64,000 bases of DNA from an uncultured Gammaproteobacteria bacterium (GTDB taxonomy: Bacteria > Patescibacteriota > Microgenomatia > CAZETR01 > Amesbacteraceae). The position numbers and the translations under genes are program-made. The notes below the pieces were generated by a model. The model saw nothing but the letters and a program-made list of their open reading frames with translations, ran no database searches and was not told where the DNA came from. The DNA is taken from contig CAZCXU010000001.1 of assembly GCA_964502885.1 (NCBI GenBank), positions 93,352 through 157,351 on the forward strand. Reading direction: 5' to 3'. Every line of letters starts with the position of its first letter. Position 1 is the first letter of the stretch. Below are positions 11,302 to 31,454 of this stretch, piece after piece.

Positions 11302-12126
11302 TTAGTCGGCTGATTTTAGCAAATTAAATCGTTTTAGCCAAGGTTTGAGCCCGCCCAATCCCGTGATAGAGTATTGCTGCATTGCTCCGGTCAGGGAAAA
11401 AACAAACCAATAAATTACCAGCCCAGCCTGAAATTGATACCCTACTACGAGGGTCATAAGCGGGAAAAGATAGACCATCTGGCGCTGTGCCTCTACTATT
11501 GCATCGTCGGACGACTCAGGTGTGCCATCGGCAATTTTTTTTGCTTTGGCGACTACAGGGGAAAGCATTAGGGAACTGATCAGTTGAGTGACTGCAGACA
11601 GAAAGAGAAACAGTCCAGGAATCGGGAGGGGGACGCCAGGTATATGAAAGACGTCGGCCCTGGTAAGATCCATATATAAGAAATCAGTAGTAAGCTTAAA
11701 ATCAGAGGGGAGTTGATTGAAGGAATACAACTTATCACCGATTTCTGTCGCAATTTTTGAGGGATCTGCTTTGAGCACGATATTAAATACTGAGAAGAGA
11801 GCAATGAGTATGAGTATCTGAATTATCTGAGGCAAGCAACCTGAAGCTGGATTAAGTCCGTGTTCTTTGAAAAGTTGGGCTTGAGCCAGCATAAGCCCTT
11901 GTTTGTCGTTTTTGTACTTTTCCTTGAGTTTGGTAATTTCGGGGGCCAATTCCTGAGTTTTTTTAGTTACTTTGAGTCCTGGTAAAACTAACGGGGTCAT
12001 CACTATGCGGAGAGCGATTGTAAGCAAAATTATTGCTACACCCAAATTTCCGGTCAGTTGAAGGAAAAAAAATAAGGCGTTGAGCAACGGCTGTGTGAGT
12101 AAAGCGTCCCAAAGAGGTGCAAACAT
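11302..12126 (-). CDS. yidC: Membrane protein insertase YidC (short Gram-positive/CPR type)
   Basis: YidC/Oxa1 core with 5 TM helices and the GCLPQIIQI motif, located in the rnpA-yidD-yidC operon. Confidence 0.85.
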   Translation of the reverse strand: MFAPLWDALLTQPLLNALFFFLQLTGNLGVAIILLTIALRIVMTPLVLPGLKVTKKTQELAPEITKLKEKYKNDKQGLMLAQAQLFKEHGLNPASGCLPQIIQILILIALFSVFNIVLKADPSKIATEIGDKLYSFNQLPSDFKLTTDFLYMDLTRADVFHIPGVPLPIPGLFLFLSAVTQLISSLMLSPVVAKAKKIADGTPESSDDAIVEAQRQMVYLFPLMTLVVGYQFQAGLVIYWFVFSLTGAMQQYSITGLGGLKPWLKRFNLLKSAD

Positions 12127-12916: not shown

Positions 12917-14275
12917 ATGGATAAGGAAAAAACCTGGACAAGTGTACTCGCGTCCCTAAAAACTGAAGTGTCTGAGGGAATTTTTAACACCTATCTGAAA
13001 AATACTCACATTGTAGACATCCAGGAAAATGATCAACGAACAATTTTTGAAATAGGATGCAACTCCACATTTATAAGAAACACATTAGACCTTCGCTATC
13101 ACGGACAAATTGCTAGGGAATTATCCAGAGTAACAGGCAAAACAGCAGAGGTGGTAATTAAAGTTGCGGAAAAGAAAATTGAACTTGATGAAAAAGGAAC
13201 TCTTTTTGAGACACCCAAGGCCACCGTTTTTTCTGATGCATGGAGAAAGGCCAACCTGAAAGCTGACTTTACCTTTGAAAATTATGCTGTGTCCGGAAGC
13301 AACCAGATGGCGTATGCGGCCGCACAGGCCGTGGCGAAAAAATTGGGAGAAACATACAATCCATTGTTTATATACGGTGGGGTGGGGGTGGGGAAAACAC
13401 ATTTAATGCAAGCGATAGGTCACGAAGCCTTGCGAAATTCAAATGGACAGGTATTGTTTTGTTCCGGAGAGGAATTTACGAATGACCTAGTCGAAGCTAT
13501 TAGATTTAAAACTACGGATAAAGTTAGATCAAAGTATCGCAAAGTAAAACTTCTCATGATTGATGATGTGCAATTTATTGCCGGAAAACCCACAGTGCAG
13601 GAAGAATTTTTCCATACGTTTAACGCTATACAGCGCGACGGGGGTCAGGTCGTTATGACATCAGATAAGCCCCCCGGAGAAATTGCCAAGCTAGAGGAAA
13701 GGCTGAGAAGCCGGTTTGGGGCTGGCTTAATTGTCGACGTAGGGCCGGCAGACTTTGAATTGAGATCTGCAATTGTTCTAATTAAAGCCAAACAAAGAAA
13801 CATGGAAATCTCAATGGAAACAGCTCAAACGATTGCGGCAAATGTTACCGGAGTGCGAGAACTACAGGGGGCATTAATTAAACTGGAAACAGAAGAGCGA
13901 ATTCGGGGAAAAAAATTAGACATGGAGGAAATTTTGAAACTTTTGAATGTTCAAAACGAAGAAGCTATTAAATCCAGATTTATTACTCCAACTGAAGTCA
14001 TAAACCAGATCGGAAATTATTACGGAGTGGGCGTGCAACAACTTAAGGGTGAGAAAAGAACCAAGACGATTGTTTGGCCACGACAAATATTAATGTTTAT
14101 ATTACGCCACGATCTTAAACTACCATTGGAAGAAGTTGGAAGGCTGCTGGGAGGAAGAGACCACACCACAGTATTGCACGCCACAGACAAAGTCCGAGGG
14201 GAATTGGACCAGAACCATAAATTTGCAGCCGAAATGGCGGATGTTAAAAGAAAAATCTTTGGTGGTGGAGCATAA
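12917..14275 (+). CDS. dnaA: Chromosomal replication initiator DnaA
   Basis: AAA+ motifs GGVGVGKTHLMQAIGHEA, and a C-terminal DNA-binding domain (TTVLHA...). Confidence 0.95.
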   Translation: MDKEKTWTSVLASLKTEVSEGIFNTYLKNTHIVDIQENDQRTIFEIGCNSTFIRNTLDLRYHGQIARELSRVTGKTAEVVIKVAEKKIELDEKGTLFETPKATVFSDAWRKANLKADFTFENYAVSGSNQMAYAAAQAVAKKLGETYNPLFIYGGVGVGKTHLMQAIGHEALRNSNGQVLFCSGEEFTNDLVEAIRFKTTDKVRSKYRKVKLLMIDDVQFIAGKPTVQEEFFHTFNAIQRDGGQVVMTSDKPPGEIAKLEERLRSRFGAGLIVDVGPADFELRSAIVLIKAKQRNMEISMETAQTIAANVTGVRELQGALIKLETEERIRGKKLDMEEILKLLNVQNEEAIKSRFITPTEVINQIGNYYGVGVQQLKGEKRTKTIVWPRQILMFILRHDLKLPLEEVGRLLGGRDHTTVLHATDKVRGELDQNHKFAAEMADVKRKIFGGGA

Positions 14276-14528: not shown

Positions 14529-15647
14529 ATGAAAACAACAGTTTTACAAAGTGATCTGGCAAAATGTTTGGGAACAGTCAGCAGAGTGATACCCAGCAGA
14601 GGGCAGTTGCCTGTGTTGGCAAATGTGCTATTGGAGGCACGCAAAGATGGATTGACCCTAGTAGCAACAAATCTGGAACTTGGAATTCGTGTAATGGTGG
14701 GGGGAAAGATTGAGGAGGAGGGTGACATAACTATTCCGGCGAAAAACTTAACTGAATTTGTATCATCGTTGCCTGCAGGGAGCGTTGATCTATCGACTGA
14801 TGGGGAGAAGATGCTTATTAAGGGCGGAAAGCTATCTGCGACCTTTACAGGGATTTCAGCGATGGAATTTCCGGTGGTACCAAAGATCGAAAGTGTACAA
14901 GGTGGACGAATAGTAAAGATTAAAAGGGCGATGATGGAAAAAGTTGCAAAACAAGTTGCTTTTGCTGCAGCTACAGATGAGAGTAGGCCAGTTTTGACAG
15001 GTGTGGTTTTTATGAGTGAGGGAAATATATTGAAAATTACGGCAAGTGATGGATTTCGATTGAGCAGGAGATTTATTGAGATGGAAAGGGGGTTATGGTT
15101 ATCGGATAAAAGGTTGATTCTTCCGGCAAGAACACTATTGGAGATGTCAAGAATTGCAGCAGAGGGTAAAAAGGAAGAGATTGAGATGGCTGAAATAGCT
15201 GAGAATAACCAGGTTATTATGGCTTACGATGGAATTCAGCTTACATCGCGGATACTGGAGGGTAATTTTCCTGATGTAGAAAAGATTATTCCCGTGGATA
15301 CCAGAACAAAGATTACTCTTGATAGGCAGGAAATGCTGCGGGCGGTTAAGGCAGTGGGGATATTTGCAAGGGACAGTTCGAATATTATCAGGCTTAGAAT
15401 TCAAGATGGCGGGATGATGGTGGAGGCAAGCGCTACTCAGACAGGAGAGAGCACTGTTGAATTGGAAGGGGAGAAGACTGGAGACGATGGACAGATTGCT
15501 TTCAATTACCGGTTTGTGTTGGACTTTTTGAATAGTGTGGATAGTGAGAGAGTTACCTTTGGAATGAATGACAGCCTGGCCTCAGGGTTGTTTGGAATTG
15601 ATGGTGACAATGAATTGCTGCACTTGATAATGCCGGTAAGAGTCTAA
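14529..15647 (+). CDS. dnaN: DNA polymerase III beta sliding clamp
   Basis: 372 aa with three-domain clamp architecture. The N-terminus reads MKTTVLQSDLAKCLGTVSRVIPSRGQLPVLANVLLEA. Confidence 0.9.
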   Translation: MKTTVLQSDLAKCLGTVSRVIPSRGQLPVLANVLLEARKDGLTLVATNLELGIRVMVGGKIEEEGDITIPAKNLTEFVSSLPAGSVDLSTDGEKMLIKGGKLSATFTGISAMEFPVVPKIESVQGGRIVKIKRAMMEKVAKQVAFAAATDESRPVLTGVVFMSEGNILKITASDGFRLSRRFIEMERGLWLSDKRLILPARTLLEMSRIAAEGKKEEIEMAEIAENNQVIMAYDGIQLTSRILEGNFPDVEKIIPVDTRTKITLDRQEMLRAVKAVGIFARDSSNIIRLRIQDGGMMVEASATQTGESTVELEGEKTGDDGQIAFNYRFVLDFLNSVDSERVTFGMNDSLASGLFGIDGDNELLHLIMPVRV

Positions 15648-16161: not shown

Positions 16162-17028
16162 TTAACCACCGCAGAAATAATTTTCAGGACGAACCCAAAC
16201 TCCGTCTATCTGTGCCTCTAGGTGAAGGTGTGTATTGTTTCCCTGATCAAATAGTGCGGTAACAACTGTACCAGATATGGCATCTGTAGCGTAGGAAGAT
16301 GGCACCATAACATGAGTAAGTACTAAGTGGACAGATGTTGTGCCAGACGTTGTGTCGCAGTAGATGGTATTTCCGACTGAACCATTGGCGAATCCGTAAC
16401 GACATGACCAATTTACACTGACACCGTTTACTTGTGGAAGGACCACTCTGGTATCAGAGGAGAATACGTCAGCTGCAAAACCATATTCTGAGCACGAAGC
16501 TCCTCCCCCGGGCTGGTTACAGCGATTTCCATCAGGTGGGGTGGAGGTCCGACAACCGGACCCTTGTGGTATAGAGTAACAACTACCTCCGTATACGTCT
16601 TCCCAGTAATAAGAACTACCGTGTCCTCCCGAGCGATTGTGTTCCTGTGTGGGATTGTAAGAACCAAGAGATATGACTCCTCCAGGGATAGGGCAACTGC
16701 TGGGGTCAGCAAAACCTCCTCCGGGATCAAAAACTCCACCACCTCCAAAGCCGAATCCAAAACGAGAAACCGGAGTTACGAATCCTGAGCTGTTAATTAC
16801 TATTACAGCCATTAGGATGAAGCCAAAAAATATCGCCGTTGCCAACAATGCGATGAAAGCTGTTCCCAGTAGAGTGACTGCGTCGGCAATAAGGTGTTTT
16901 TTGAAATCTGTACCAAATGTTAGAAGTTTGCCGTAAGAAAAGCTTGATATTTTGGTGATATTAATGCTAAAAGCTGATCGAAGGCGACCAATGAGAGGAT
17001 TTATGGGGCCAATAGATAAACTAGCCAT
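16162..17028 (-). CDS. Putative membrane-anchored cell-wall hydrolase (M23-like C-terminal motif), Gly/Cys-rich
   Basis: TM helix near the N-terminus, then a GFGFGGGGVFDPGGG tract and a Cys-rich middle. The C-terminal ...GNNTHLHLEAQIDGVWVRPENYF resembles the M23 HLHFE...G..VDP motif. Confidence 0.3.
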   Translation of the reverse strand: MASLSIGPINPLIGRLRSAFSINITKISSFSYGKLLTFGTDFKKHLIADAVTLLGTAFIALLATAIFFGFILMAVIVINSSGFVTPVSRFGFGFGGGGVFDPGGGFADPSSCPIPGGVISLGSYNPTQEHNRSGGHGSSYYWEDVYGGSCYSIPQGSGCRTSTPPDGNRCNQPGGGASCSEYGFAADVFSSDTRVVLPQVNGVSVNWSCRYGFANGSVGNTIYCDTTSGTTSVHLVLTHVMVPSSYATDAISGTVVTALFDQGNNTHLHLEAQIDGVWVRPENYFCGG

Positions 17029-17033
17029 TATTC

Positions 17034-17321
17034 TTAATGATGATTAATTTCTTCAAGTAATATGAGCGGAAGTTTGAGCAAATGATCCTTTTCTTCCTGA
17101 TAAGGGTCGGAGAAATGTTCATCTGTAGAGTGTGTTTCCACTTCGCGGCGAAGCTCTTCTGTGCTTTTGTGGAGGACCTGCCCAGCCCATTGCCAAAGCG
17201 GGTCAGCGTCTGTTTTGAACTGATCAAAATTATGACAGGAATTACAGATTTCAATTACGGCGTTTTCCAGACTGCTGACGACAGATGGATTTATGTAGTC
17301 AGGGTAGGCAAAAGTGTTCAT
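17034..17321 (-). CDS. Hypothetical small protein in the T4SS-like operon
   Basis: 95-aa ORF, acidic, translationally coupled to the VirB4 stop. Confidence 0.3.
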   Translation of the reverse strand: MNTFAYPDYINPSVVSSLENAVIEICNSCHNFDQFKTDADPLWQWAGQVLHKSTEELRREVETHSTDEHFSDPYQEEKDHLLKLPLILLEEINHH

Positions 17322-19183
17322 TTTGATTCAGGAACCAGTATTGGTTTGGTTTGAGTTTCAGCTTGTTTTTGAGCTAATATTTCGGAGGGTTTGGTGGTAA
17401 TTAGCTTGTGTTCGTCCGGGGATGCTACAAAGCGAACAGCTACGTGATTGTTTCCTGCAAAAAACAGACCTTCTCCAACGTTTGCTGACAGGAGAAGGTG
17501 TTTTTCTCCCTCGGAGAGATAGAAGACCTGGGAAATTTTGTCGACTCCCGCTGGTGATTGTTTCATGAGTATTTGTAGGGAAGAACTGGTGACGATGGCT
17601 TTGCCGTAATCAGTGTTCAAAAAGTCTTCTACGTCCTGAGTAATAGTGGTAAGACCGAGAAAATACTTACGAGCGCGTTTGGCGACGCTGTAGAGGAAAC
17701 TGGCTGAGTCGGGATAACGCATGAGATACCAGGCCTCGTCTACCACAAGAATGCGTTTCTTGAGGTCGCGGCGCATTTTTGTCCAGATATAGTCAAGAAT
17801 GAGAAAGATAGCAATGGGCTTGAGAGAATCTTCGAGATCGCGGACAGAAAAAACTGTAAATTGATTTTTTAGTTGAATATTTGATGGCTGATCGACTATT
17901 CCGGTAAAACTTCCCTTTACAAATCGTTCTAGGCGATCAGCAAGAGATAGGGCTATGGGTTCTTCCATGCCAATGAAAGCTTTGTAAAGATCTTCCATTA
18001 GCGGGGGAGTATTTTTTTGTGTAGCGGGATCAGGGGTGATACCTTTCATACGATAAGCGAGATTGAGGGCGCGATCGAGAAGTGCGTCTTCTGTGGGGCT
18101 AAGGTTTCCCATGATGACTTTGAACATGGAATGCAGCGATTGAATTTTGAGATTAAGCTCGTTTTCATCTGAATTTTGGGTAAGAAGGGAAAGATCAAAG
18201 GGGTTGATGCGATTTTGAGAATTGTAGGAGAAATTGATGTAGTCGCCTCCTACGGCATCACAGAGGGCTTTGTATTCGTTTTCAGGATCTATAACGATTA
18301 TTTCTGTACCAAACATCATGGAACGAACCAGTTCAAGTTTAATGGTGTAAGACTTTCCCGCACCGGATTTGGCGAATACTACTGAGTTGGCGTTTTCCAG
18401 AGAGAAGCGATCAAAAATGACCAAACTGCCGTTGTGCTGATTTATTCCATAGAGGATGCCGTCATTGCTGGTGAGCTCTGATGAGGTGAAAGGGAAGGTG
18501 GTGGCCAGAGAGGTGGTGTCCATGTTTCTGGTGACCATAAGATGGTCGATACAGGTGGGGAGGGTGGTTTTGAAACCTTCAGCCTGCTGGAGGAGTGTGG
18601 GTGTAGAGGCCACTAGAAGAGATGAAAGGGAGCTAGTGACCTGTTTACTGGCAGTTTCAAGTTCGGAGGGGGAATCGGCGGGAATGGTGACATAGAGAGA
18701 GAATTGAAAGAAGCGTTCGATGCCTTTGACGAGTTGATCCTGAAGAGCCAGAGCGTCTTCGAGTTTGGCTTGGGTTACAGGATCGACAACGCGGCCGCGT
18801 TGGGCGTCAGTGTTTAGCTCGGCTTCCATTTCGGCAATCTTTCGACGCAGATCGTCGAGCGTGGACTTGCTTTCTACAGGATAGATGAACATGGAAATAT
18901 TTAGTGAATGGTCAAAATTAATGATGGGACTAAGCCAGTTGCTGGAGACGAAGCGGCGGTTTATTGAGGTGAAGTAGGTGCGGAAATATGTGTCGTTGAT
19001 TTTTAATGAATTGAAATCGATGGTAATGTTTTGTGGGGCGATGATATCCTTGACTGTTTTGGCCTGGGATAATTCTTTTTGGGGGAGAGCCATATTTGTG
19101 TCTGGGACGTTACCGGAGACCTGAGTTGCAGGAGTGGCAGTTTTTTTGACGGGGGTAAGGTTAGGGAGTTTTGGTAGCTTCAT
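17318..19183 (-). CDS. Type IV secretion / conjugation ATPase VirB4 family (C-terminal ATPase portion)
   Basis: Walker A VVFAKSGAGKSYTIK, Walker B ILVVDEAWYLM, and the general VirB4/TraE/CagE architecture. Confidence 0.85.
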   Translation of the reverse strand: MKLPKLPNLTPVKKTATPATQVSGNVPDTNMALPQKELSQAKTVKDIIAPQNITIDFNSLKINDTYFRTYFTSINRRFVSSNWLSPIINFDHSLNISMFIYPVESKSTLDDLRRKIAEMEAELNTDAQRGRVVDPVTQAKLEDALALQDQLVKGIERFFQFSLYVTIPADSPSELETASKQVTSSLSSLLVASTPTLLQQAEGFKTTLPTCIDHLMVTRNMDTTSLATTFPFTSSELTSNDGILYGINQHNGSLVIFDRFSLENANSVVFAKSGAGKSYTIKLELVRSMMFGTEIIVIDPENEYKALCDAVGGDYINFSYNSQNRINPFDLSLLTQNSDENELNLKIQSLHSMFKVIMGNLSPTEDALLDRALNLAYRMKGITPDPATQKNTPPLMEDLYKAFIGMEEPIALSLADRLERFVKGSFTGIVDQPSNIQLKNQFTVFSVRDLEDSLKPIAIFLILDYIWTKMRRDLKKRILVVDEAWYLMRYPDSASFLYSVAKRARKYFLGLTTITQDVEDFLNTDYGKAIVTSSSLQILMKQSPAGVDKISQVFYLSEGEKHLLLSANVGEGLFFAGNNHVAVRFVASPDEHKLITTKPSEILAQKQAETQTKPILVPESK

Positions 19184-19832
19184 TTTTGACTGATGGAACG
19201 GGAACTTTTGGTAAGGTAACGTTTGTTCCCATTACATCCTGATTATAGGAATTAAAAAATAACTGTAATAGTTCATTTGAGGTTATTTGGCGCCCTTTAA
19301 GACCTATGCGAGCGAGAAGTCGCAACAAATGATCTCTTTTGGGAACAAGGTTTGTAATGGCCCGATCAACTATATAGTCTTTGGGGAGAGTGGTATTTGC
19401 TGACTTACCTCCCAGAACTTTCAGCGAAGAACCAACACCTAATTCAAGTGAACTAAATGGCAAAGATATGTAGAATTTTTTATCCAACACATTTCCCTGA
19501 CGAACGATGGCTTTGACGAAGTCGCGATATTTAGTAAGCTGTTCCTTGAGCTTTGATGTGGTGATTTGGGCAAGGTGAGTGTCCAGTTTTTCGATATAAC
19601 TGGAAATATCTTTTCGTTTGCTGATGAGAACGATTTGGATGGAAAAAGTGAGTGAGTTTAGAAGCTGTGCGTAGGCATAAATGGTGGCGTCCTGCTCTCT
19701 TTCTGAAAGAAGACCAAAGTTGACGGCGCTAATTTCCATGACCATACAGGCCGAGCCGTCTTTGAGAATGACGATGTCGTTTTGAATATCTTCAATGTCC
19801 AGATGATCTTGTGTGCGGGGGGGGATAGTCAT
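19161..19832 (-). CDS. VirB4 N-terminal (CagE/TrbE/VirB-like) domain encoded as a separate ORF
   Basis: ...DIVILKDGSACMVMEISAVNFGLLSEREQDATIYAYAQLLNSLTFSIQIVLISKRKDI resembles the N-terminal domain of VirB4 homologues. It overlaps the VirB4 start by 23 nt. An alternative upstream start lies at 19907. Confidence 0.4.
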   Translation of the reverse strand: MTIPPRTQDHLDIEDIQNDIVILKDGSACMVMEISAVNFGLLSEREQDATIYAYAQLLNSLTFSIQIVLISKRKDISSYIEKLDTHLAQITTSKLKEQLTKYRDFVKAIVRQGNVLDKKFYISLPFSSLELGVGSSLKVLGGKSANTTLPKDYIVDRAITNLVPKRDHLLRLLARIGLKGRQITSNELLQLFFNSYNQDVMGTNVTLPKVPVPSVKNEATKTP

Positions 19833-19839
19833 ACTTTTT

Positions 19840-20931
19840 TTAGGTTTTTCCGTGAATAATAACAGGGCTAATAATACTGCCTTTGGCTTGAATAGAAACC
19901 GGGTCAAAAGTTAAACCTTCCTTTTCGGCGATGACGTTGTAAGTTCCGGCTGGCAAGGGAATGGCAATTTGGAACTGACCGAGACGATTGGTTCTTAGGG
20001 CCCGTGCAGGAATACCTGTCTTGGTATCAATAATCTCTACAGTTGTTTGTGCTAACGGCTGGGAAGCTGCATCTACAACCATGCCGGTGAGAATATTCGG
20101 ACTGGCAGGATTGGGAAGCTGAGTGGTGACTGTAGCAGATGGGGCTGAAGGAATATTTACAGGTTTGGGAAGCGGGGGAGTGTTAGCAACAACAGCTGAA
20201 ACACCAGAGGAGGTGAGAATTGGTGAGGTAGGAGTGGTGGGTGTAGCTAAAACTGTTTGTGGTGACGCTTCGGCGTGGGGTGTGCCTGCCGATGAGAAAG
20301 AGGTTGAGATGGTTGGAGTTGAGGTGGAATTTTTAACTGGAGATGTAAAGACTGGTTGGGCGCGTGCAGGGGAAGTGGGGATAGGTGCAGAAGAAGGGGC
20401 AGATGTAGGGATAATGGGGGGAACAGTTGAATTAGGAGCGGGTGTGGGAACAATGGAGGAAATGGCTGAGTTAGGAGTAGTTGATGGAGGTAGAGTTTTT
20501 GCGGTGGACATCTGCGGTTCAATTTTTATGGCAGCAGGAATTGGTGCCGGAACGGTGGTGACTGGTTGAGGTGTAGGTGGCGACGGTGGAGCGGCTGTTG
20601 CAGTGGGTGTGATTGGTGGGGGTGGGGCAAGGCTCGCAACGATTTCGTCAGAGATCCAGACATACTCAGTGGGAGAATAGATGGCTTTAAAAAAAGCGAC
20701 GAGCCAAGTGGTAAAGGGTCGATTGTTGATAGGGATAAAGGCCATGAGTGCACCCGTGGTGATGGAAATAAAAACCAGCGGGTATTTGATTATGGGGATT
20801 AATTGGAGACGGAAAATGAGCACCCCCACAACAATGCCTCCTGCCAGCTGGAGAAATTGCTTGAGGGTCATATCGCCCACGAGACGGAACTCGTAGGAGG
20901 AAATATTTTGCGGGACAGGGTGGTTATCCAT
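19840..20931 (-). CDS. PrgI/TcpE-like (VirB3-analog) two-TM protein with Pro/Thr-rich linker and C-terminal carboxypeptidase-regulatory-like beta domain
   Basis: N-terminal SSYEFRLVGDMTLKQFLQLAGG followed by two TM helices. A long PT-rich low-complexity region. The C-terminus reads GMVVDAASQPLAQTTVEIID...YNVIAEKEGL. Confidence 0.4.
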   Translation of the reverse strand: MDNHPVPQNISSYEFRLVGDMTLKQFLQLAGGIVVGVLIFRLQLIPIIKYPLVFISITTGALMAFIPINNRPFTTWLVAFFKAIYSPTEYVWISDEIVASLAPPPPITPTATAAPPSPPTPQPVTTVPAPIPAAIKIEPQMSTAKTLPPSTTPNSAISSIVPTPAPNSTVPPIIPTSAPSSAPIPTSPARAQPVFTSPVKNSTSTPTISTSFSSAGTPHAEASPQTVLATPTTPTSPILTSSGVSAVVANTPPLPKPVNIPSAPSATVTTQLPNPASPNILTGMVVDAASQPLAQTTVEIIDTKTGIPARALRTNRLGQFQIAIPLPAGTYNVIAEKEGLTFDPVSIQAKGSIISPVIIHGKT

Positions 20932-21181: not shown

Positions 21182-23962
21182 ATGGACGATATGAGCAGCG
21201 AATCTAGACGGTCTGGTAGACTTGATTTTGACTCTGGCTTGGACGCTTCCCAAGTTAACAGAAGTGGGGATGTTGTAGGCCGAAATGTTCAAGAGTGGGG
21301 AGGGCGGGGGAGGCAGGTTGATGCGGAAGATGATAATTTAGAAATTTTCAAAAAAAAGTTGGAAGAAGCGGAGAACTTTTCTAGTATTCAGACTTATGTA
21401 GTGGGATATTTGGAGAGAGCTGAACAGAGAAACATCGTCGAGAGAAACGCAGCTTTGGAATTAATTCTGGAGAGGTCGAGATCATTTAAGGAGGTGGACT
21501 TAGGAATTCAAAGAGCTTTAAAAATCTCTCTAAAGGAGGAAAGGTTTGAAGAGTTGAAACAACTGAAAGACGAACAAGCAGCGTTGATGGTGGTGGCTGA
21601 TTCTTTAGATATGTTTGAAGGGGTAAGGCAGGTGGCTAGAGCAGGCCAGGGGGATTATTTACGAGGGAAGAGAGACGCGGATGAAATCTTTTCTGGAGCT
21701 GTGGGGCCTAATGTGTCAAATATAAGGGGTTCAGAGAAATTGCAAGGAATGGTGGACAGATACCAAGCCACAGCTGTAGGGGTGTGGGAATGGGCAAAAA
21801 GTGTGGCAAAGGGCGCGGATTATGAAGGTCGAACAAAAGAAGGTTTAGAGGCGTTGGGATGGGGAACTATCCCGTTTAGAGAAACATTGAACTTGGCAAG
21901 GGTTATAACGGAAGAAACTGTTTCTCCACCGGAAACTCCCCCCAGAGTTGGTCCATCTGGTGGTGACCCATCTCGAGGACCAGAAAGTGAGATTTTTGCT
22001 GAAAGGGCAAGGAGAGCAGAAGAGTTGTTGATAGCAACGGGATTAAGTAACAATGGTTTGCCAACATCAATTGCTGAGTTGGATGCTATTGAACAAGGGG
22101 CTCCATACATCGAAAAAACAGGCAGACCTTTGTATGGTGGAATTTTGCACAACCTGCTTAATAAATACATGACAGTTTCGGTGACTGAGGGAGAGAAAAG
22201 ATTGGGGTTGGCTAGTAAGGTGGAGGCTAATTTTACTTCTGATGAGTTGCTACTAATTAACGACAGAGATGTGAGGTTTTGGGTTCAAGTGTTTGCCTTT
22301 GGGTTTGGGTTGGGGTCTCGAACGAAAATTAATTCACATTTAAATGAGAATCAGGGTGGTTTTGTGAAGAATGCTTCAGGAGAAGCTCCCATGCAGGGGA
22401 GAAGTGTGGGTGAAATGTTAAATGCAATTGCAGGTAGGGATGTTGAGAATGATGAAAGAATGTGGGGAGAATATCGTATGGAGGCGGGGCGACGGGTGGC
22501 TCCCTCTAAGGATAATACATGGAATAAAGCTTTTGGAAATGTGCAGTATGGTGAATGGGAGGTTTTGCAGGTGGCGATGATGAGAGCAATAGTGTTGCGA
22601 GGGAATCCAGAGATTTCTTCGGATGAACTCGACACAATAATTCGTACTAATAAAAATTTACGTATGGGTTTAGCTGGGGCGAGGATGTATGCAATGGCGA
22701 CACATATGGGAGATCAGTTTGCAGTCGAATCTAAACACTTTTTAGCAACGGCGGCATATTTTGAGTTCCATTTTCAAGCAGCAGCCGTGGATAGATTGGC
22801 AAAATTATCATTACCACACAGGTTTAGGAGTTATATGAATTTAAACTCAGACTTATTTAAGGACTCGCAGGGAAACTGGAGTGATGAAACACTTATGCAT
22901 CGCAGATTATTTGCCCCTGATGTAATGCGATCAGTTATATGTTCTCCTGCTGTGTTTTCGCGAGGAGTACAAGGACCTAATCCGGAAGAATCAAGATATG
23001 AACCACAGGAGACAATCTTAGACTTGGCCATAAGGGGCATAGAAGTTCGACAAGATGCGTTGCAAACAGGGGTAACTCCTACCCGTATTTATAGTTTTGG
23101 AGTAAATGCGGCCGAAAAAATATTTAATTTGGCTTTTGGGGGTGGGACTCCCCCCGAAGGGCCGGATGTAAAGTTTGACAGAGATAAGGGATGGGCGTGG
23201 AATATGGGGCAGGAAATTCTGGCTACAGCGCGGGATTTGGGTTGGATTATGGAATATGAAAATACCATTAAACAAGAAGGGGTGAGTATGACTCCAGCTG
23301 AAGCGTCTCGACGAAGAAGAGCGATAGAACATAATATTCAGAGGTTGGGTATCACTAGGTTTATGGCTGGGTTGGGAATGAGAATAGAAAGAGGCGAAGT
23401 GCACAATTTAACCGATTTGGCGGCTTGGGCGGTGGGGATGGTGCTTGATAGAAGCGCCAAGTTTGTACATCAGATGAATTTGCCGGACGGAAGTGTCAAG
23501 CAGTTGGAGTTTCGCTGGGTATCCAAGGAGGACTCAGAATGGGTTGTAGAACATGGGTTGAATAAAAGAGATGAGAAGTGGGTGGATACGAGAAGCCCTT
23601 GGTCTTATGTTTATGAGTTAGTAACCAGGAGAGCACCTAATCGTAGAGGTGAGTGGGAAACTAAGCAGGGTGGAGAAGATGATTTATTGATTCAGGTATT
23701 GGTAGATAAGGCAGGAGGGGATGCTTCGGAAGCGGCTATGCACAGAAGAGACCAACTGAATCATCGGGTTAGAAAGTGGCGTTGGGGAGTAGGTGACTAC
23801 TTCTTGGGGTGTGGAGGGACTGCTACTAAAGAGGATGTGAGGCTTCGGGAGAGCTTTGAAGAAAAAATTGCGGGTGGTAGGGATATGCCCAAAATAGACA
23901 GGTTAACTCCATATCAAAAGGTGTACAACACATTGGACTTTTCTGATTACGGTAAAAGCTAA
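21182..23962 (+). CDS. Large soluble orphan protein (926 aa) adjacent to the T4SS-like genes
   Basis: Long ORF with no TM helix and no Walker motifs, Gly/Arg/Trp-rich. No family I recognise. Confidence 0.5.
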   Translation: MDDMSSESRRSGRLDFDSGLDASQVNRSGDVVGRNVQEWGGRGRQVDAEDDNLEIFKKKLEEAENFSSIQTYVVGYLERAEQRNIVERNAALELILERSRSFKEVDLGIQRALKISLKEERFEELKQLKDEQAALMVVADSLDMFEGVRQVARAGQGDYLRGKRDADEIFSGAVGPNVSNIRGSEKLQGMVDRYQATAVGVWEWAKSVAKGADYEGRTKEGLEALGWGTIPFRETLNLARVITEETVSPPETPPRVGPSGGDPSRGPESEIFAERARRAEELLIATGLSNNGLPTSIAELDAIEQGAPYIEKTGRPLYGGILHNLLNKYMTVSVTEGEKRLGLASKVEANFTSDELLLINDRDVRFWVQVFAFGFGLGSRTKINSHLNENQGGFVKNASGEAPMQGRSVGEMLNAIAGRDVENDERMWGEYRMEAGRRVAPSKDNTWNKAFGNVQYGEWEVLQVAMMRAIVLRGNPEISSDELDTIIRTNKNLRMGLAGARMYAMATHMGDQFAVESKHFLATAAYFEFHFQAAAVDRLAKLSLPHRFRSYMNLNSDLFKDSQGNWSDETLMHRRLFAPDVMRSVICSPAVFSRGVQGPNPEESRYEPQETILDLAIRGIEVRQDALQTGVTPTRIYSFGVNAAEKIFNLAFGGGTPPEGPDVKFDRDKGWAWNMGQEILATARDLGWIMEYENTIKQEGVSMTPAEASRRRRAIEHNIQRLGITRFMAGLGMRIERGEVHNLTDLAAWAVGMVLDRSAKFVHQMNLPDGSVKQLEFRWVSKEDSEWVVEHGLNKRDEKWVDTRSPWSYVYELVTRRAPNRRGEWETKQGGEDDLLIQVLVDKAGGDASEAAMHRRDQLNHRVRKWRWGVGDYFLGCGGTATKEDVRLRESFEEKIAGGRDMPKIDRLTPYQKVYNTLDFSDYGKS

Positions 23963-24020: not shown

Positions 24021-25751
24021 TTAGGATGTACCACCTGCGGGAGGGACAGGTCTTCGAATGTTGGCTTCTTTGGCTTTGGAGACTTGCTGACCAGCCGAAG
24101 TCAATTGTCCCATGGTGTCTTTGGCCATCTTTTCAACAAAGTCAGAAGGATCTACAGACTTACAGAACATGTTCTTAACCATGGTTGCTATGTTGGGGGC
24201 GAATGACATGGCCCCTACGAAAACTGCATATTGGACGAAAATATTACTGGGCATGTCAAATAAGGGAAAGTTGGCTTGGTTGTTAAAAAAGAAGCCTATG
24301 TCTCCGGCGAATCCTGGGACGGGAGTGCGAGTGTCAAACCCTGCATTAATTAGAATTGCTAAGAGAGCATATGTCACAAAAATTGAGGCATTGCCGATGA
24401 GACAAAGAAGCCATTTTTTAAATCCACCAAAATCAGATTTCTTCGATGGGATAATATCGAAAATAATTATTAGCGGGCCGGCGACAACCAGAAGATTAAA
24501 AGTAATAAAGGCGACCACAAATTGACCAATAATTCTGGCCCAGACGTAAATTGACCAAAGGAAGAAACCAAGAATGAAACCAGCTATGAGAACAACCACT
24601 CCTCCAGAAGCAAGATTAAGCAGTGCAGCTAGAACTATAGTGAGAATTATCAGTACTATGGAAACAACTATCCAAAAGGCAAGGAAATGCCAGACAAAAT
24701 CAAAACCGCCTCCAGCTAAGGTGGACATAGCAAGCGGCAAGTCAGTTATAATTGTCATGCCGATAGCTGTTTGGGCAAAATAAAGCATGCCAATAATTGC
24801 GGAAATGGCTAAGTACATCAGGTCAATTACGAAGCCGGCAATGGCGTATGAAAAGAGAACCAACACAATAGATATGGCAATGCGGGGAATAACCATTTGA
24901 ATTGTTACCGAGACTTGCGGAGATATTTTTGAACGGAACATAACCATAAAACCAGCAATGATGATAATCAGGGTGGTAATTAATAGTGCGATGTTTCGAG
25001 TGGCGATCCAAAATGCTCGGGTAGGAGAGTCTGTCGTTCCGGTACCACCCAAGCCAAGTCTTTCGTAACCACTTCCTTGCGCAAACGTGTCCGAGACAAT
25101 GTTGAGTTTTGAAGCAAGTTGTTTAGTTTCAGACCAGGCTGAGGGGAGGGTGTCAATTTGTGATGAGATATAGTAGGTAAGCTTGAGTACTCCAATATAA
25201 CTTTGACCTATGAATCCATATTTATTAACAAATGCCAGATCAGAAGAAGAAAAATTTTGAGTGACGAGCATGCTGCGGGCAAGATCTATCGCTGTGAGTA
25301 AATCAGTGATGTTTTGCAAAAGGGCTGCTGGATCAGGAGAAGATATAACTGAGGGAAATAACATCGAAGAGAGAGAGTTGAGGATCCAGTTTACTTGAGC
25401 GTAGGTGTAGCGCTCACCAAAAATTTCGTCGGGATTTGTATTGTCGAAAACTTTTTGCTGGAACTCCTGAATTGAAGGATTGTACCAAGGGTGTGGTGTT
25501 ACTTCGGCGAAGAACAAACGGGAGATTTCGTAGATGAGATAGGAGCAACGTGCTGCATCACCGAAAGGGTTGGGGGAAATGGCTTGACAGGCAGCATCTG
25601 CCTGAGCGCACAGCGGCTCGGCGGGATCACAGGTCGGTTGGGCAAGAACCGGTGATGGTGTGATAAATACTGTTAACCCTATGAATAGAAACGAAAGGGT
25701 AAAAAGGTATTTTTTAATCAGCATTGAAAGATGTTTTGTCATGGAAGACAT
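24021..25751 (-). CDS. Polytopic membrane protein with signal peptide and Cys-containing periplasmic N-domain; VirB6/TrbL-like candidate
   Basis: Signal peptide, then a roughly 230-aa extracytoplasmic domain, then about 8 TM helices with large loops, consistent with VirB6-like topology. Confidence 0.35.
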   Translation of the reverse strand: MSSMTKHLSMLIKKYLFTLSFLFIGLTVFITPSPVLAQPTCDPAEPLCAQADAACQAISPNPFGDAARCSYLIYEISRLFFAEVTPHPWYNPSIQEFQQKVFDNTNPDEIFGERYTYAQVNWILNSLSSMLFPSVISSPDPAALLQNITDLLTAIDLARSMLVTQNFSSSDLAFVNKYGFIGQSYIGVLKLTYYISSQIDTLPSAWSETKQLASKLNIVSDTFAQGSGYERLGLGGTGTTDSPTRAFWIATRNIALLITTLIIIIAGFMVMFRSKISPQVSVTIQMVIPRIAISIVLVLFSYAIAGFVIDLMYLAISAIIGMLYFAQTAIGMTIITDLPLAMSTLAGGGFDFVWHFLAFWIVVSIVLIILTIVLAALLNLASGGVVVLIAGFILGFFLWSIYVWARIIGQFVVAFITFNLLVVAGPLIIIFDIIPSKKSDFGGFKKWLLCLIGNASIFVTYALLAILINAGFDTRTPVPGFAGDIGFFFNNQANFPLFDMPSNIFVQYAVFVGAMSFAPNIATMVKNMFCKSVDPSDFVEKMAKDTMGQLTSAGQQVSKAKEANIRRPVPPAGGTS

Positions 25752-25797: not shown

Positions 25798-28700
25798 TTA
25801 GGGAAAGGGAAACGGGCAGCTGGGAGCAATCCATTCCCATTTGCCTTGAAGGCCAGGATTTGCGGCGGTACCGTCTCCCAACGCATATAGATCGGATTCG
25901 GCGGTGGGAATGCAGGAGTCACCCACCAGGTATATGGCAGAGAATACCCGTACTCCTCCGTAAGTATTTATTTCAGATGCGCAACGGGATCTGATGGCAT
26001 TTACGGTAAGGAGGTGACCGGTGATTTGCTGATCGAAGTTGTTTGGTGTGTTGTATTGACCGACGTGAACGCCAAAATCTTCTACTGGAGTGTTGGCTTC
26101 GTAATTGCTGGCGTCCGATTCGTTTAACCAAATCAATAGTGAAAGTCCAGGATTTACGCCGGCGGCGTCTGCGCGTGTGACGACGTCGTTGTAGCAAAGT
26201 TCTGCGAAAGTGCCATCCGGAAAATTGGTCCAGCGCCTGGCGATGTCTATGTAGTTAGTGCGATCTACACAGGGTGTGTTGGTTTCGGGAAGATTGGTGT
26301 TGCAGTTTATGCCGCCCGGTGAGTCTATAGGGCTGACTGATCCTACAAAGCCTTTTGGTCGGAGGGCGCGTTGGAGATTGAGGTTTTCACGGGTGGGGAC
26401 ACCAAGAATGTGATCGGCAAGGCTGCCGACCTTGGGAAAATAAAAAGCTCCCCCAGAAGTGCGCAAACCTCCTCCGATACCACCAGAGGCTACATTACGT
26501 CCTGCCGTGACACGGGGATTGATCAAATTTTGCACCTGGCCGTTGTAGGCTGCACTAGTTCCTGCCGGTATGGATACGTCTCTGTTGTTGGTGATGTCGT
26601 AATCGGTTTGTGTGATCTGCCAAATGCAGGAGTAGCCCTGGGATGCCATTGCCTGACAGGCTGTTTCGGTTAATTGGTTAGAACAAATTCCAAGATCTCG
26701 GGGTGAGGTGGTGGTGCAAGCTTCATATGTGCCAGTCAGGGGGAGTTTGGGCATCCAGCGACGAAGGACTGAGTTTGGGCCTGCCACAAGGATGTCATAG
26801 AGCTTTTCGATGTATGGTGTTTTTACAAAAGGATTAACCCGTGCAGCTGATCTCAGGTTGCGGGTTGGCCAGACAGGGCAGTGAGGAGGACGAGGGGCCA
26901 GTGCGGGAGCGGCACGAACAACACGCCACTCACAGTATGGTGACATTCCGGCGGCAGTACACCCAGTTTGGTCCAGGGCCGAACAAACAGAAGCATAACT
27001 ATCGTATCCAGATCTGCTGCGGCAGGCATATTCATCAGTGGGGGCACAACATATTTCGCCAGCATTACCACAATCCAGATCAATTATTTCCCGATTTTCG
27101 CCACATCCGTTTGGACCGGGCGCGCGGCAGTCGTATGTGGAGCTGGCATGGTAGCACTCGCTAATCCAAGGACAGCGTTGTCCGATTTGAATCGTGCAGC
27201 ATTCGCCCCCAGGAAGCTGGTCATTGCATTCATCTCCCTCCAGGGAACAGGGTCTATTGATGCAGTTGCCGGCACCGGCGGGACACGGGTTTGCGTCACA
27301 GCCAATTACGAGTCGGGGTGTGTAGCGGAAGAGCTGACGATATGTAAGATTTCCGTTTAGGACGTTTCCCAGCAGGCGATCTCCGGATGAAGTACGAGTT
27401 TCGGCTTCGTCGCAAGTAAAGTCTGATGGAACATATAACGCAGCGGGCGCAGGTCCGTCAATAATTTCCGTGTTGCGAATGACAGTTCCGCCACCAGAGC
27501 AGCCCCTGAGAATGGAGCCTGCAAAATATCTTTGGCAGAGAACAACTGTTTCGTCGGAGTGTCCTTCGGATGCTCCAAAACCCTGATGGCGGGCAACTCT
27601 TTGGGAAAACATATTGCTATTTTCAGAACTGAACAAGGGAGCGTGTGTGGCGGCAGGGGGTGTTGGCGTTGGAGTAGGTGTGGCCAGAACAACAGTTTGA
27701 CTTGAATAACTGGATCCGGCGAGACGAATACGAATGCTGCCGGGGAGACCGCGACTGACAAACCACTGGCTACTTCCGCCGTAGCGATAATATGAATGAG
27801 GCCATGTAGGTATGATGCCTTCGTAATAGCGTTGCACACTGACACTGGGGTCAACATAGTTACTGAGTGGACCGTAGTCTTGGTTTGTTGTCGGATCAAA
27901 AACATGGAATTGGTTCCAAAGCGCTTCACCCATACCTGGCAAACCGTAATAAACATCTATCAGGTTGTAAGCTGGCAAGTAAAAAGCCCGGAGATAGTCT
28001 GCCGGATTTGTTGATAAAACAGGAGTGGGGATTGGGGGCGGGGGGGGAGGGGCGGTGGGAGGAACAATTACCGGATATGGCTGATGCAAAGCTTGGACGA
28101 GACTTGATAAAGGAACAGCTGATTTCATGTGCGGGAAATAAAGCCGTGAATCAAAGCGGCCTGAAATAAGGGTGGGAAAACTGAGGCCAATAGTGAGAAT
28201 TCGGCCATCGATGTCTACGGGTTGAGCTTCCGGAATAACACTTGCTGTAAACTCACTCACAGTGTCCTCAAGAGTTGAGTAATTGATGTATTTATGTGTC
28301 CAGGTTTCGGTATCGAAATTGCTGGCCACCCAACTAAGGCGGCGACGCAGGGTGCTGCTGACGCAGGGTTCTGCGAGGTCGAGACGTAAAGCTGCAGTGA
28401 TGTTTCCGATGCGACTCAGCAGGTTTCTGCCTAGGGAAAAAAGCATGTTTACATCATCAAGGTTGTTGGCTATCACAGTAAAACCGTAATTTAAAAGTAC
28501 ATTTCTAATTCCGATTGGGTTGAATTGATCGCCCGGAAGTAAGGCAATGTTGACAAGTGCGCCACCAAAATCCTGCATATTATTCATGCCAACTCGACGG
28601 ATGATATCGATCATTCTGACAACATCAAGGAAACTGCCAAATGAGTTTGTAAATATTGCTTCCAGAGCGTCTAAAACATAATCAAAGTCGATGTTCCGCT

Positions 28701-29484: not shown

Positions 29485-29880
29485 TTAGGAGCAGCCGATG
29501 CCTCTGGCTATACAGATATCAAATATTCCCAAATTGATACCGAGGAAAGTGCCAATAAGGTTGACTATTACGAATGCTGACAAGGTGATTATTAATCCTG
29601 CAAGAGAAAAGATAATTGTATTTCTTGCTTGTTCGGTTTGGGCTTTGTCTGCTCCTGCAGCTAGATACTTGTATCCACCAATAACCAGAAATCCTAAAGA
29701 AATGAAAACAAAAAGGCTGATGATTGCGGTAATCGCAGCGGCTATTACTCTATTTAGGTTCTGGAGCATTGCGGGCGGAGTAGGGTTTGCAATTGTTGTT
29801 TGAGCTTGAGCGACAGTAGGCCATGCTAATACGAATACAGATGCGGCCAACGTGATCAGTGAGCGAATTGTTGTGTACAT
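29485..29880 (-). CDS. T4SS pilin-like protein (VirB2/TrbC-like two-helix), paralog 1
   Basis: Signal peptide, then TM1-GADKAQTEQARNTI-TM2. It ends in a CxxxxxC tail. Confidence 0.55.
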   Translation of the reverse strand: MYTTIRSLITLAASVFVLAWPTVAQAQTTIANPTPPAMLQNLNRVIAAAITAIISLFVFISLGFLVIGGYKYLAAGADKAQTEQARNTIIFSLAGLIITLSAFVIVNLIGTFLGINLGIFDICIARGIGCS

Positions 29881-29960
29881 CTGTTTTTAATATAGGGCAA
29901 AAAAACAACCCCGGCAAGGGCCCGGGGTTGTTTTGGCCATTTCTGGCCGGTTCCAAAAAC

Positions 29961-30326
29961 TTATGAACCAATCGTTGCGAGATTGAATTCGATAAGGTTG
30001 ACGTTGAAGAGAACACGCAGAATGTACAGTAAGGCGTAAGCAGAGAAGACGATTGCCAAACCGATTAAGGCGGCAGTGATCTTCTTGCGAGCTTTTTCGG
30101 TACCTTCTTTGTCTCCACCAGCGAGAATCCATTGTAAACCACCCCAAAGTAGGATGATAAAGGAAGCTACGCCAGCGATACCCAACATAAGATTCAAGAT
30201 GGTTCTCAAGAAATCTGATGGGGTATAGTTCTTCAAAGTGTCGAAACGTGTATCGACGTTAGCCACGCTACCGACATCCGAGTCTGGAATAGGAAGAGCA
30301 AGTTGTGCAAGTAGTCTCATCATCAA
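29961..30326 (-). CDS. T4SS pilin-like protein, paralog 2
   Basis: LGIAGVASFIILLWGGLQWILAGGDKEGTEKARKKITAALIGLAIVFSAYALLYILRVLFNVNLIEF. Confidence 0.6.
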   Translation of the reverse strand: MMMRLLAQLALPIPDSDVGSVANVDTRFDTLKNYTPSDFLRTILNLMLGIAGVASFIILLWGGLQWILAGGDKEGTEKARKKITAALIGLAIVFSAYALLYILRVLFNVNLIEFNLATIGS

Positions 30327-30379
30327 ATCTCACCGCCTTTCAGTGGAAAGTATAACATAAAATCAGTGCCGGAGGCTAA

Positions 30380-30754
30380 TTAGAGGGGTGTGATAGTGTA
30401 CTCAATGAGATTGACGTTGAAGAGGGTACGGATGATATACAGAATCGCATAGGATGAAAATACGATAGCCAATCCTATGAGAGCATAGCTGATTTTGCGG
30501 CGAGCTTTCTCGACTGCGTCTTTGTCGGATCCAGCGGTAATCCATTGAAACCCACCTATTAGGAGGAATAAGAATGCGGCAACACCTGACAGGCCCAGGA
30601 GGGCAAGAATCGACGTGCGGATATAGCTGGCGGGCTGAATATTGTAGGTGTTAGCAAAAGGAGAGTTGGGGTCGCGTAGATCTATTAATTGCTGGGCATC
30701 AATAGAAGGAGGAAAGAGAAGCAAGCTTGCCAGGAGAGCGAGAATCAGTTTCAT
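30380..30754 (-). CDS. T4SS pilin-like protein, paralog 3
   Basis: Signal peptide plus ...WITAGSDKDAVEKARRKISYALIGLAIVFSSYAILYIIRTLFNVNLIEY. Confidence 0.6.
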   Translation of the reverse strand: MKLILALLASLLLFPPSIDAQQLIDLRDPNSPFANTYNIQPASYIRTSILALLGLSGVAAFLFLLIGGFQWITAGSDKDAVEKARRKISYALIGLAIVFSSYAILYIIRTLFNVNLIEYTITPL

Positions 30755-30782
30755 GTGAGTTCGAGTTTATAAGAAAGGGTTG

Positions 30783-31454
30783 TCAGTTACAAGGGATGCA
30801 GGTAATCAGGCCACATCCAGTCGTGCCGAGCGGAGTCCAAGAGCCGTTTGATTCGCATCGGAAACATGGACCATTTATGACAGATGTTGATCCTAACGTG
30901 CCTGCCGGAATGCATCTTCCAGTTGCAGATCCGCCACAGGCACACATGCCGGATGGTGGGGTGATGTCGCAGCCGGGATCTGTGGGGTTAGTACAAGGAA
31001 TCCCTGAATCCCAGGGATCACTACCAGGAGCAGGTGGGTTGGGGTCGTTGATCTGAGAGGAAATTTCCCCGATATGTCCGAGGTTGAATTGAATTAAATT
31101 GATGTTAAAGAGGGTGCGGAGAGCAAAAAGGAAACTGTAGGCTGAAAAAACAATTACCAGTCCAATTAAAGCCTGAACAACCTTTCTGCGGGCTTTTTCA
31201 ATTGCGTCTTTATCACCACCAGCCAGTATCCACTGAATACCGCCGATAAGCAGGAATATAAAAGAAAAAACTCCTGCCAGTTGGAGGAGAAGGTTTAGAA
31301 GTGTGGTCAATATCATTGATGGGGTGAGGCTGCGAATTGTCGTAAAATCCGGATCGACGTTTTGTTCTATGCCAATGTAGTCTTGTGCTTTTGCGGTTGC
31401 AGGCATTAAGAACATAGAAATAACTGTGGAGATGTGAACCAGGTGGTTTCGCAT
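30783..31454 (-). CDS. T4SS pilin-like protein, paralog 4, with C-terminal Cys-rich extension
   Basis: Pilin core (...WILAGGDKDAIEKARRKVVQALIGLVIVFSAYSFLFALRTLFNINLIQF) followed by a 90-aa tail carrying about 11 Cys. Confidence 0.6.
   Translation of the reverse strand: MRNHLVHISTVISMFLMPATAKAQDYIGIEQNVDPDFTTIRSLTPSMILTTLLNLLLQLAGVFSFIFLLIGGIQWILAGGDKDAIEKARRKVVQALIGLVIVFSAYSFLFALRTLFNINLIQFNLGHIGEISSQINDPNPPAPGSDPWDSGIPCTNPTDPGCDITPPSGMCACGGSATGRCIPAGTLGSTSVINGPCFRCESNGSWTPLGTTGCGLITCIPCN

Follow-up and report, generated by a model that had tools for sequence, protein, structure and literature searches.

VirB4 of an origin-proximal type IV secretion system in Amesbacteraceae is very probably encoded by two genes, a TrsD-like gene and the remainder of virB4

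The DNA analysed here is a stretch of 64,000 nucleotides (nt), hereafter the window, from assembly GCA_964502885.1 (contig CAZCXU010000001.1, positions 93,352 to 157,351), which belongs to a member of the Amesbacteraceae in the Patescibacteriota. The window carries a locus for a type IV secretion system (T4SS), in which the ATPase VirB4 is spread over two overlapping open reading frames (ORFs) on the minus strand. Does such a pair represent a damaged gene, a gene read through by frameshifting, two genes of separate function, or a single protein that is genuinely made in two parts? Our analysis indicates that the VirB4 of this chromosomal, origin-proximal Patescibacteria T4SS is very probably made as two polypeptides, namely a small TrsD-like protein and the remainder of VirB4. 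Current understanding is unchanged by this result, because the arrangement has already been published for Patescibacteria and for T4SSs of the pGO1 type. For annotation, it means that the 223-residue "hypothetical protein" becomes a TrsD-like VirB4 N-terminal subdomain protein, and that the pair should not be read as a frameshifted pseudogene.

Two ORFs that together cover VirB4

The larger ORF (621 residues; 17318..19183, minus strand) is assigned to the remainder of virB4 by its profile matches and Walker motifs. It contains the Pfam domains P-loop_TraG (PF19044, 2.5e-29), AAA_10 and DUF87, and scores 377.5 bits against the NCBIfam model NF045971 (conju_CD1110; cutoff 325), matching positions 183-734 of 752. 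It also matches Mbov_0397 at positions 284-892 of 894 and TIGR00929 at positions 207-726 of 792, and the first ~180 positions of the VirB4 profiles, which are not found in this ORF, are supplied by the separate 223-residue ORF. Residues 234-596 match the C-terminal domain of Thermoanaerobacter VirB4 (4ag5, E 3.6e-54), and both the Walker A motif GAGKS (residues 274-278; 18350..18364, minus strand) and the Walker B motif VVDEA (residues 480-484; 17732..17746, minus strand) are intact. An earlier note on this DNA regarded the 621-residue ORF as the ATPase half only, which is too narrow a description, as a variable head (residues 1 to ~40) is followed by the second half of the N-terminal domain (~40-233) and then by the RecA-like ATPase domain (234-596). 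Since residues ~40-233 precede the ATPase domain and still match VirB4 profiles, the break falls inside the N-terminal domain. Alignment to full-length PrgJ of pCF10 (796 residues), which the note had proposed, succeeded for the larger ORF, which covers PrgJ residues 335-772 with an offset of ~189 residues.

The smaller ORF (223 residues; 19161..19832, minus strand) lies directly upstream and is read as a TrsD-like gene for the detached N-terminal subdomain, which corresponds to roughly the N-terminal 200 residues of a complete VirB4. From an alternative TTG at 19907 it would span 19161-19907 and encode 248 residues; the ATG at 19832 is taken as the real start, because it is the shared alignment start of 30 homologues and because gene calling on a Logan contig, carried out independently, also gave a 223-residue product. 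The sequence pattern on which the earlier note had based its assignment, DIVILKDGSACMVMEISAVNFGLLSEREQDATIYAYAQLL...IQIVLISKRKDI, is present in this ORF, and the assignment itself to the N-terminal piece of VirB4 is borne out by the profile positions that it matches, by natural fusions and by Foldseek matches to TrwK/VirB4. The small ORF matches the profile of Mbov_0397 at positions 111-230 of 894 (E 2.5e-8), that of CD1110 at positions 8-94 of 752, and that of VirB4 PRK13853 at positions 21-68 of 789, and the two ORFs tile full-length VirB4 profiles collinearly with no mutual overlap. It also matches the TrsD/TraD model of NCBIfam, NF041427 (24.4 bits, E 2.1e-5, positions 21-107 of 201). A match to another conjugation protein instead of VirB4 would, according to the note, have told against the assignment; the TrsD/TraD match does not, as that family is itself homologous to the VirB4 N-terminus.

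The homology signal of the small ORF is far beyond chance, with 2265 homologues at E<=1e-3 and with 2739 representatives matched by its profile in a 50%-identity library of 1.84 billion representatives. Its mean column identity in the homologue alignment is 60%. All of its best 120 homologues (120/120) are stand-alone proteins of 200-270 residues, and among the top 150 family representatives the N-terminal piece always occupies residues ~1-215, 148 of the 150 being without the C-terminal part of VirB4. When the model of the small ORF was searched with Foldseek, the best 14 matches were all TrwK/VirB4 chains, and the fold is similar to the N-terminal part of solved VirB4 (TrwK residues 15-400). 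Precomputed annotation places PF26593 ("TraC-like") on the identical protein and on all listed homologues.

Relatives of both pieces vary in further ways (below, L numbers denote loci and P numbers denote proteins). In many lineages the stand-alone N-terminal piece carries a long low-complexity C-terminal tail rich in Q, N, S, P and T, as in representatives among P0241-P0388 (e.g. P0333 with 715 residues and P0310 with 705) and in loci L054, L062 and L065. The stand-alone piece has a median length of 341 residues and reaches ~715, with tails of up to ~500 residues; the tail of the small protein in the window comprises just ~18 residues. Several relatives have a VirB4 that is interrupted in frame by ~560-690 residues precisely at the P-loop of Walker A (residues ~260-278 of the query), at L008:6648-10259 and L043:6635-10576 and, judging by length, also at L017, L031, L038, L050 and L074. 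The insertion is identified as a homing-endonuclease intein by its Intein_splicing and LAGLIDADG_3 domains, and virB4 of the window is free of an intein at Walker A. In a metagenome-assembled genome of Amesbacteria (L025:1529-2288), the frame of VirB4 changes at 1861/1863, which is probably an assembly error or a pseudogene. The tails and inteins, together with the fused variants described below, are minor by-products of this analysis.

The junction in the window and in related loci

The 23-nt overlap of the two ORFs, already described in the earlier note, was confirmed at 19161..19183 (minus strand); it lies inside a non-conserved linker, and, with the small ORF as reference, the 621-residue ORF is read in frame +1. 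ATG 19183 is supported as the start of virB4, because the N-terminus that it gives, MK(L/F)P..., recurs among relatives. The A7 run that the note had placed at 19144-19150, 24 nt from the start of the ATPase ORF, actually occupies 19141-19147 and begins 36 nt after the A of ATG 19183. As this run is 3' of the stop codon of the small ORF, it lies outside the overlap and is ruled out as a slippery site; the only homopolymer that touches the overlap is an A5 run at 19183-19187. A Logan contig of 1752 bp from an independent assembly (SRR12404947) is 100% identical to positions 18766-20517 of the window, including the junction.

A locus scan with one genome per species, covering Amesbacteria, Beckwith-, Shapiro-, Chisholm-, Woese- and Collierbacteria (Microgenomates), returned 80 loci, 78 of them with both parts. 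The parts are separate ORFs in 73 of these 78 loci and fused in the other 5 (L011, L017, L018, L019 and L020). The earlier note had asked whether orthologous loci of the candidate phyla radiation also encode two ORFs, as most of these Microgenomates loci do, and of the options it had left, namely a genuine split, a programmed frameshift and an indel, the comparative data support the first and speak strongly against the other two. Over 79 loci (the 78 and the window), the frame offset is 2 in 40, 1 in 26 and 0 in 13, the last comprising the 5 fused loci and 8 with an in-frame stop and a new ATG. A 4-nt ATGA overlap is the commonest junction, and 1-nt overlaps, 11-38-nt overlaps and gaps of up to 191 nt also occur, the Collierbacteria junctions being gaps of 23-29 nt. 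Three frame relations and such varied junctions are incompatible with a conserved recoding site and with a one-off assembly error, and from these comparisons the split is genuine, ancient and maintained.

Programmed +1 frameshifting, or other recoding in the 23-nt overlap, could join the two ORFs into a VirB4 of ~840 residues in all or some ribosomes, and it would suit the overlap itself, the +1 frame of the second ORF, the A5 run at the start of the overlap and the fused proteins, which are evidently functional in sister lineages. However, the junction is not conserved, as the three offsets found in 40, 26 and 13 loci come with unrelated junction sequences and with a geometry that spans 4-nt overlaps to 191-nt gaps. 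The larger ORF has its own ATG and the recurrent MK(L/F)P N-terminus, the A7 run is past the stop codon, and no known +1 slippery motif is present at the junction. A slippery site conserved together with its frame relation, as in prfB (+1) and dnaX (-1), was not found among these loci, and recoding is thus highly improbable here. The variant in which a fraction of ribosomes shift +1 in the overlap, giving both split and fused VirB4, deserves just as little credence.

Alternatively, an indel that arose in sequencing or assembly, or an inactivating mutation of very recent date, might have split a single gene; the homopolymer runs near the junction and the fused forms of sister lineages would suit this. 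Overlaps in the closest relatives are mostly 1 or 4 nt long, and the 23 nt of the window resemble what a 1-nt change in an A-run could make of an ATGA-type junction. Such a change in the A5 run before the ATG is plausible; however, it would add only seven codons of non-conserved tail and not create the split. An indel could thus have altered at most 7 codons of that tail, while the split recurs in 73 of the 78 related loci from many independent assemblies, in 120 of the 120 best homologues of the small ORF and in 148 of the 150 representatives, and the junction is identical in SRR12404947. Both pieces are also highly conserved, the small one with the column identity of 60% given above. A pseudogene or artefact should be disrupted in this genome only, with intact orthologues elsewhere, which is not what we found, and we consider this explanation scarcely tenable.

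Fused forms also account for 24 of the 120 clusters of homologues that stand closest to the large ORF (P0142-P0197), with lengths of 738-842 residues (787-842 except for the single 738-residue P0173). Most of these 24 clusters carry both PF26593 and PF19044 in the precomputed annotation, and the fused ORFs match VirB4 profiles in one stretch (CD1110 3-735/752, TIGR00929 8-726/792 and Mbov_0397 112-892/894). When fused, N-only and C-only proteins are aligned, two conserved blocks, the end of the N-terminal piece (...GTKV.LP) and the start of the C-terminal piece (KDL...DIIAP..I.VDFN), are connected by a linker that varies from 0 to 40 residues, and it is within this linker that the split proteins end and begin. 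The AlphaFold model of the fused homologue P0170 is of low confidence (predicted local distance difference test score (pLDDT) 57, predicted template-modelling (TM) score 0.41) and served only to measure how far it aligns with TrwK, not to judge domain packing; its alignment with full-length TrwK covers 735-885 columns (E 1.9e-14). In a neighbour-joining tree, the fused loci occur at two distinct positions within the split Amesbacteria, and this rough tree suggests at least two independent secondary re-fusions in Amesbacteria.

Taken at the level of sequence, the homology of the pieces, their collinearity, the Microgenomates-wide split, the break point of pSK41 TrsD/TrsE and the natural fusions all point to a VirB4 made in two parts. 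Some results weigh against this reading. With 24 bits, the small ORF stays below the curated NF041427 cutoff of 200, which pSK41 TrsD itself exceeds with 227.6 bits, and it is therefore a remote TrsD relative and not a member of the curated family. The TM-scores of the structural matches are low (~0.4), because the models are only of moderate or low confidence (pLDDT 70 and 57). Among PDB chains, neither the single small-ORF sequence nor its 30-sequence profile detected a VirB4, and a Pfam-A scan of the small ORF gave no family with a copy of the database that apparently lacked the newer PF26593 model. Alignment of the N-piece profile to full-length PrgJ with hhalign was weak (E 0.044, probability 1%), at the correct N-terminal position. 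Finally, the physical complex of the two chains and their translational coupling are predictions.

A further explanation would make the upstream ORF an accessory protein of the T4SS in its own right, with no more than a superficial resemblance to the VirB4 N-terminus and no place in a composite VirB4. Its similarity to VirB4 N-termini is indeed remote, many lineages carry Q/N/P/T-rich tails of up to ~500 residues that are not found in full-length VirB4, and in Gracilibacteria the TrsD homologues are reported apart from virB4 in PMC12102498. Against this, three VirB4 families are matched at the appropriate N-terminal positions of their profiles, the natural fusions run collinear with full-length VirB4, and the best structural matches are exclusively TrwK/VirB4. 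Moreover, the partner VirB4 is without exactly the matching ~190 N-terminal residues. An accessory protein of this kind is therefore very unlikely, and a two-chain VirB4 is the reading that we carry forward. The search of PDB chains by sequence returned only CodY and Crl for the small ORF, both of which were judged to be chance matches.

Related systems and a proposed mechanism

According to Quiñonero-Coronel et al. 2025 (PMC12102498), TrsD is a remote homologue of the VirB4 N-terminus and the most abundant T4SS component in Patescibacteria, with 2272 homologues, of which 1664 are neighbours of virB4. The same paper describes Patescibacteria T4SS loci near dnaA/dnaN that include PrgI/VirB3 and VirB2-like pilins, notes that the Gracilibacteria TrsD homologues are not adjacent to virB4, and cites Wang et al. 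2023 for a TrsD homologue listed as essential in Ca. Southlakia epibionticum ML1. The window shares with these systems the gene pair, the PrgI/VirB3-like neighbour, the VirB2-like pilin array and the dnaA/dnaN position, and it is a further example of them that differs in nothing essential, its overlap being 23 nt instead of the 1-4 nt usual in close relatives. Term searches of PMC12102498 found no mention of the fused TrsD-VirB4 ORFs of some Amesbacteria, and "fused" occurs once, for VirB3-VirB4. The VirB3-VirB4 fusions of some conjugative systems, cited there, are evidence that the limits of genes at this end of VirB4 are evolutionarily plastic; however, they go in the opposite direction, joining VirB4 to its upstream partner, whereas prgI and the N-terminal piece are separate in the window.

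The same gene order is found in the staphylococcal plasmid pSK41, in which trsD (227 residues) lies directly upstream of the gene for the VirB4 homologue TrsE/TraE (672 residues). In pGO1 and pSK41 (MPF_FATA, pGO1 subclass), a protein of ~225 residues directly precedes a VirB4-like ATPase of ~620-670 residues, with the same break point, and the window agrees with this TrsD-type arrangement, as a protein of ~200-230 residues stands directly upstream of a VirB4-like ATPase without its first ~190 residues. Residues 79-611 of the larger ORF align with residues 69-643 of pSK41 TrsE (26% identity, E 7e-40). The 30-sequence profile of the small ORF aligns with pSK41 TrsD by hhalign over 177 columns (9-200 versus 34-217; E 5.8e-5, probability 66%, 24% identity), which is an end-to-end match of moderate support. 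The homology of the pSK41/pGO1 genes to the pair in the window is remote only, and their system is plasmid-borne, conjugative and equipped with a relaxase, whereas that of the window is chromosomal and origin-adjacent (the window was not searched for a relaxase).

Full-length VirB4 proteins, such as PrgJ of pCF10 (CD1110 family) and TrwK of R388 (PDB 7O3J-7O43, 8RTB/8RTD), are collinear with the two ORFs of the window, which has both Walker motifs intact and a 4ag5-like ATPase domain. Unlike PrgJ and TrwK, which are single polypeptides, the VirB4 of the window would consist of two, with the break at about residue 190-200 within the N-terminal domain. In TrwK of R388, that domain comprises residues 15-400, and VirB3 wraps around it.

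On this basis, the following mechanism can be proposed. Translational coupling across the 23-nt overlap is probable and would allow both proteins to be made in near-equal amounts, after which the two chains probably associate non-covalently and rebuild a complete VirB4. By analogy with the N-terminal domain of R388 TrwK, the small chain would supply the surface that is wrapped by VirB3/PrgI, and this contact could dock the ATPase hexamer on the membrane and thereby power VirB2-like pilus assembly and secretion. A more speculative idea, which we hold only tentatively and consider rather unlikely, is that the TrsD/VirB4 boundary is a labile fission-fusion point and that the free N-terminal piece acts as an adaptor, separately tunable, that connects VirB3/PrgI with the VirB4 hexamer. 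The free piece would then be more than a passive fragment, and TrsD, to which no function has yet been assigned, would gain a definite role in the structure from the natural fusions. The epibiotic lifestyle is reported to require the Patescibacteria T4SS, and a two-chain VirB4, broken inside the domain that VirB3 wraps in R388, matters for modelling this secretion machine. With the natural fused variants at hand, it could be tested directly whether joining the two chains covalently is neutral.

A break at another position may exist elsewhere. Residues 79-212 of the larger ORF and residues 157-376 of the fused protein of L019 match the C-terminal part (~244-477 of 477) of the NCBIfam model "SCO6880 family protein", which hints at actinobacterial systems with a stand-alone VirB4 N-terminal-domain protein that is broken at a different point.

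Genes around the pair

The operon is ordered as prgI/virB3-like, trsD-like, virB4 and small ORFs, with stop and start codons that overlap or abut. A PrgI/VirB3-like gene (363 residues; 19840..20931, minus strand) lies immediately upstream of the N-terminal piece, separated from it by its stop codon and a 7-nt gap. Its product is unusually long, with an N-terminal PrgI domain, a Pro/Thr/Ser/Ala-rich linker of ~170 residues and a C-terminal CarboxypepD_reg-like beta-sandwich domain, and it is likely the membrane anchor contacted by the N-terminal piece. Four VirB2-like T4SS pilin genes (T4SS_pilin/TrbC) form an array at 29485..31454 (minus strand) in the same T4SS region, and virB4 is thus encoded together with other T4SS components.

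Downstream of virB4, a 95-residue ORF (17034..17321, minus strand) is placed in the same operon, because its ATG overlaps the virB4 stop codon as ATGA. It is followed in the same operon by an ORF of 288 residues (16162-17028, minus strand), which shows a membrane segment at its N-terminus, a stretch rich in Gly and several Cys residues, as well as an HLHLE motif reminiscent of M23 peptidases. This ORF gave no significant Pfam match and could be a candidate cell-wall hydrolase, analogous to VirB1. The genes dnaA (12917-14275) and dnaN (14529-15647) directly adjoin the operon, which places the T4SS locus beside the origin of replication, in agreement with reports on Microgenomatia; yidC is found at 11302-12126.

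Three large ORFs separate the virB4 operon from the pilin array, with 926 residues (21182-23962, plus strand), 576 residues (24021-25751, minus strand) and 1220 residues (25798-29460, minus strand). They have no Pfam match and may represent VirB6-like, VirB8-like or surface components in divergent form.

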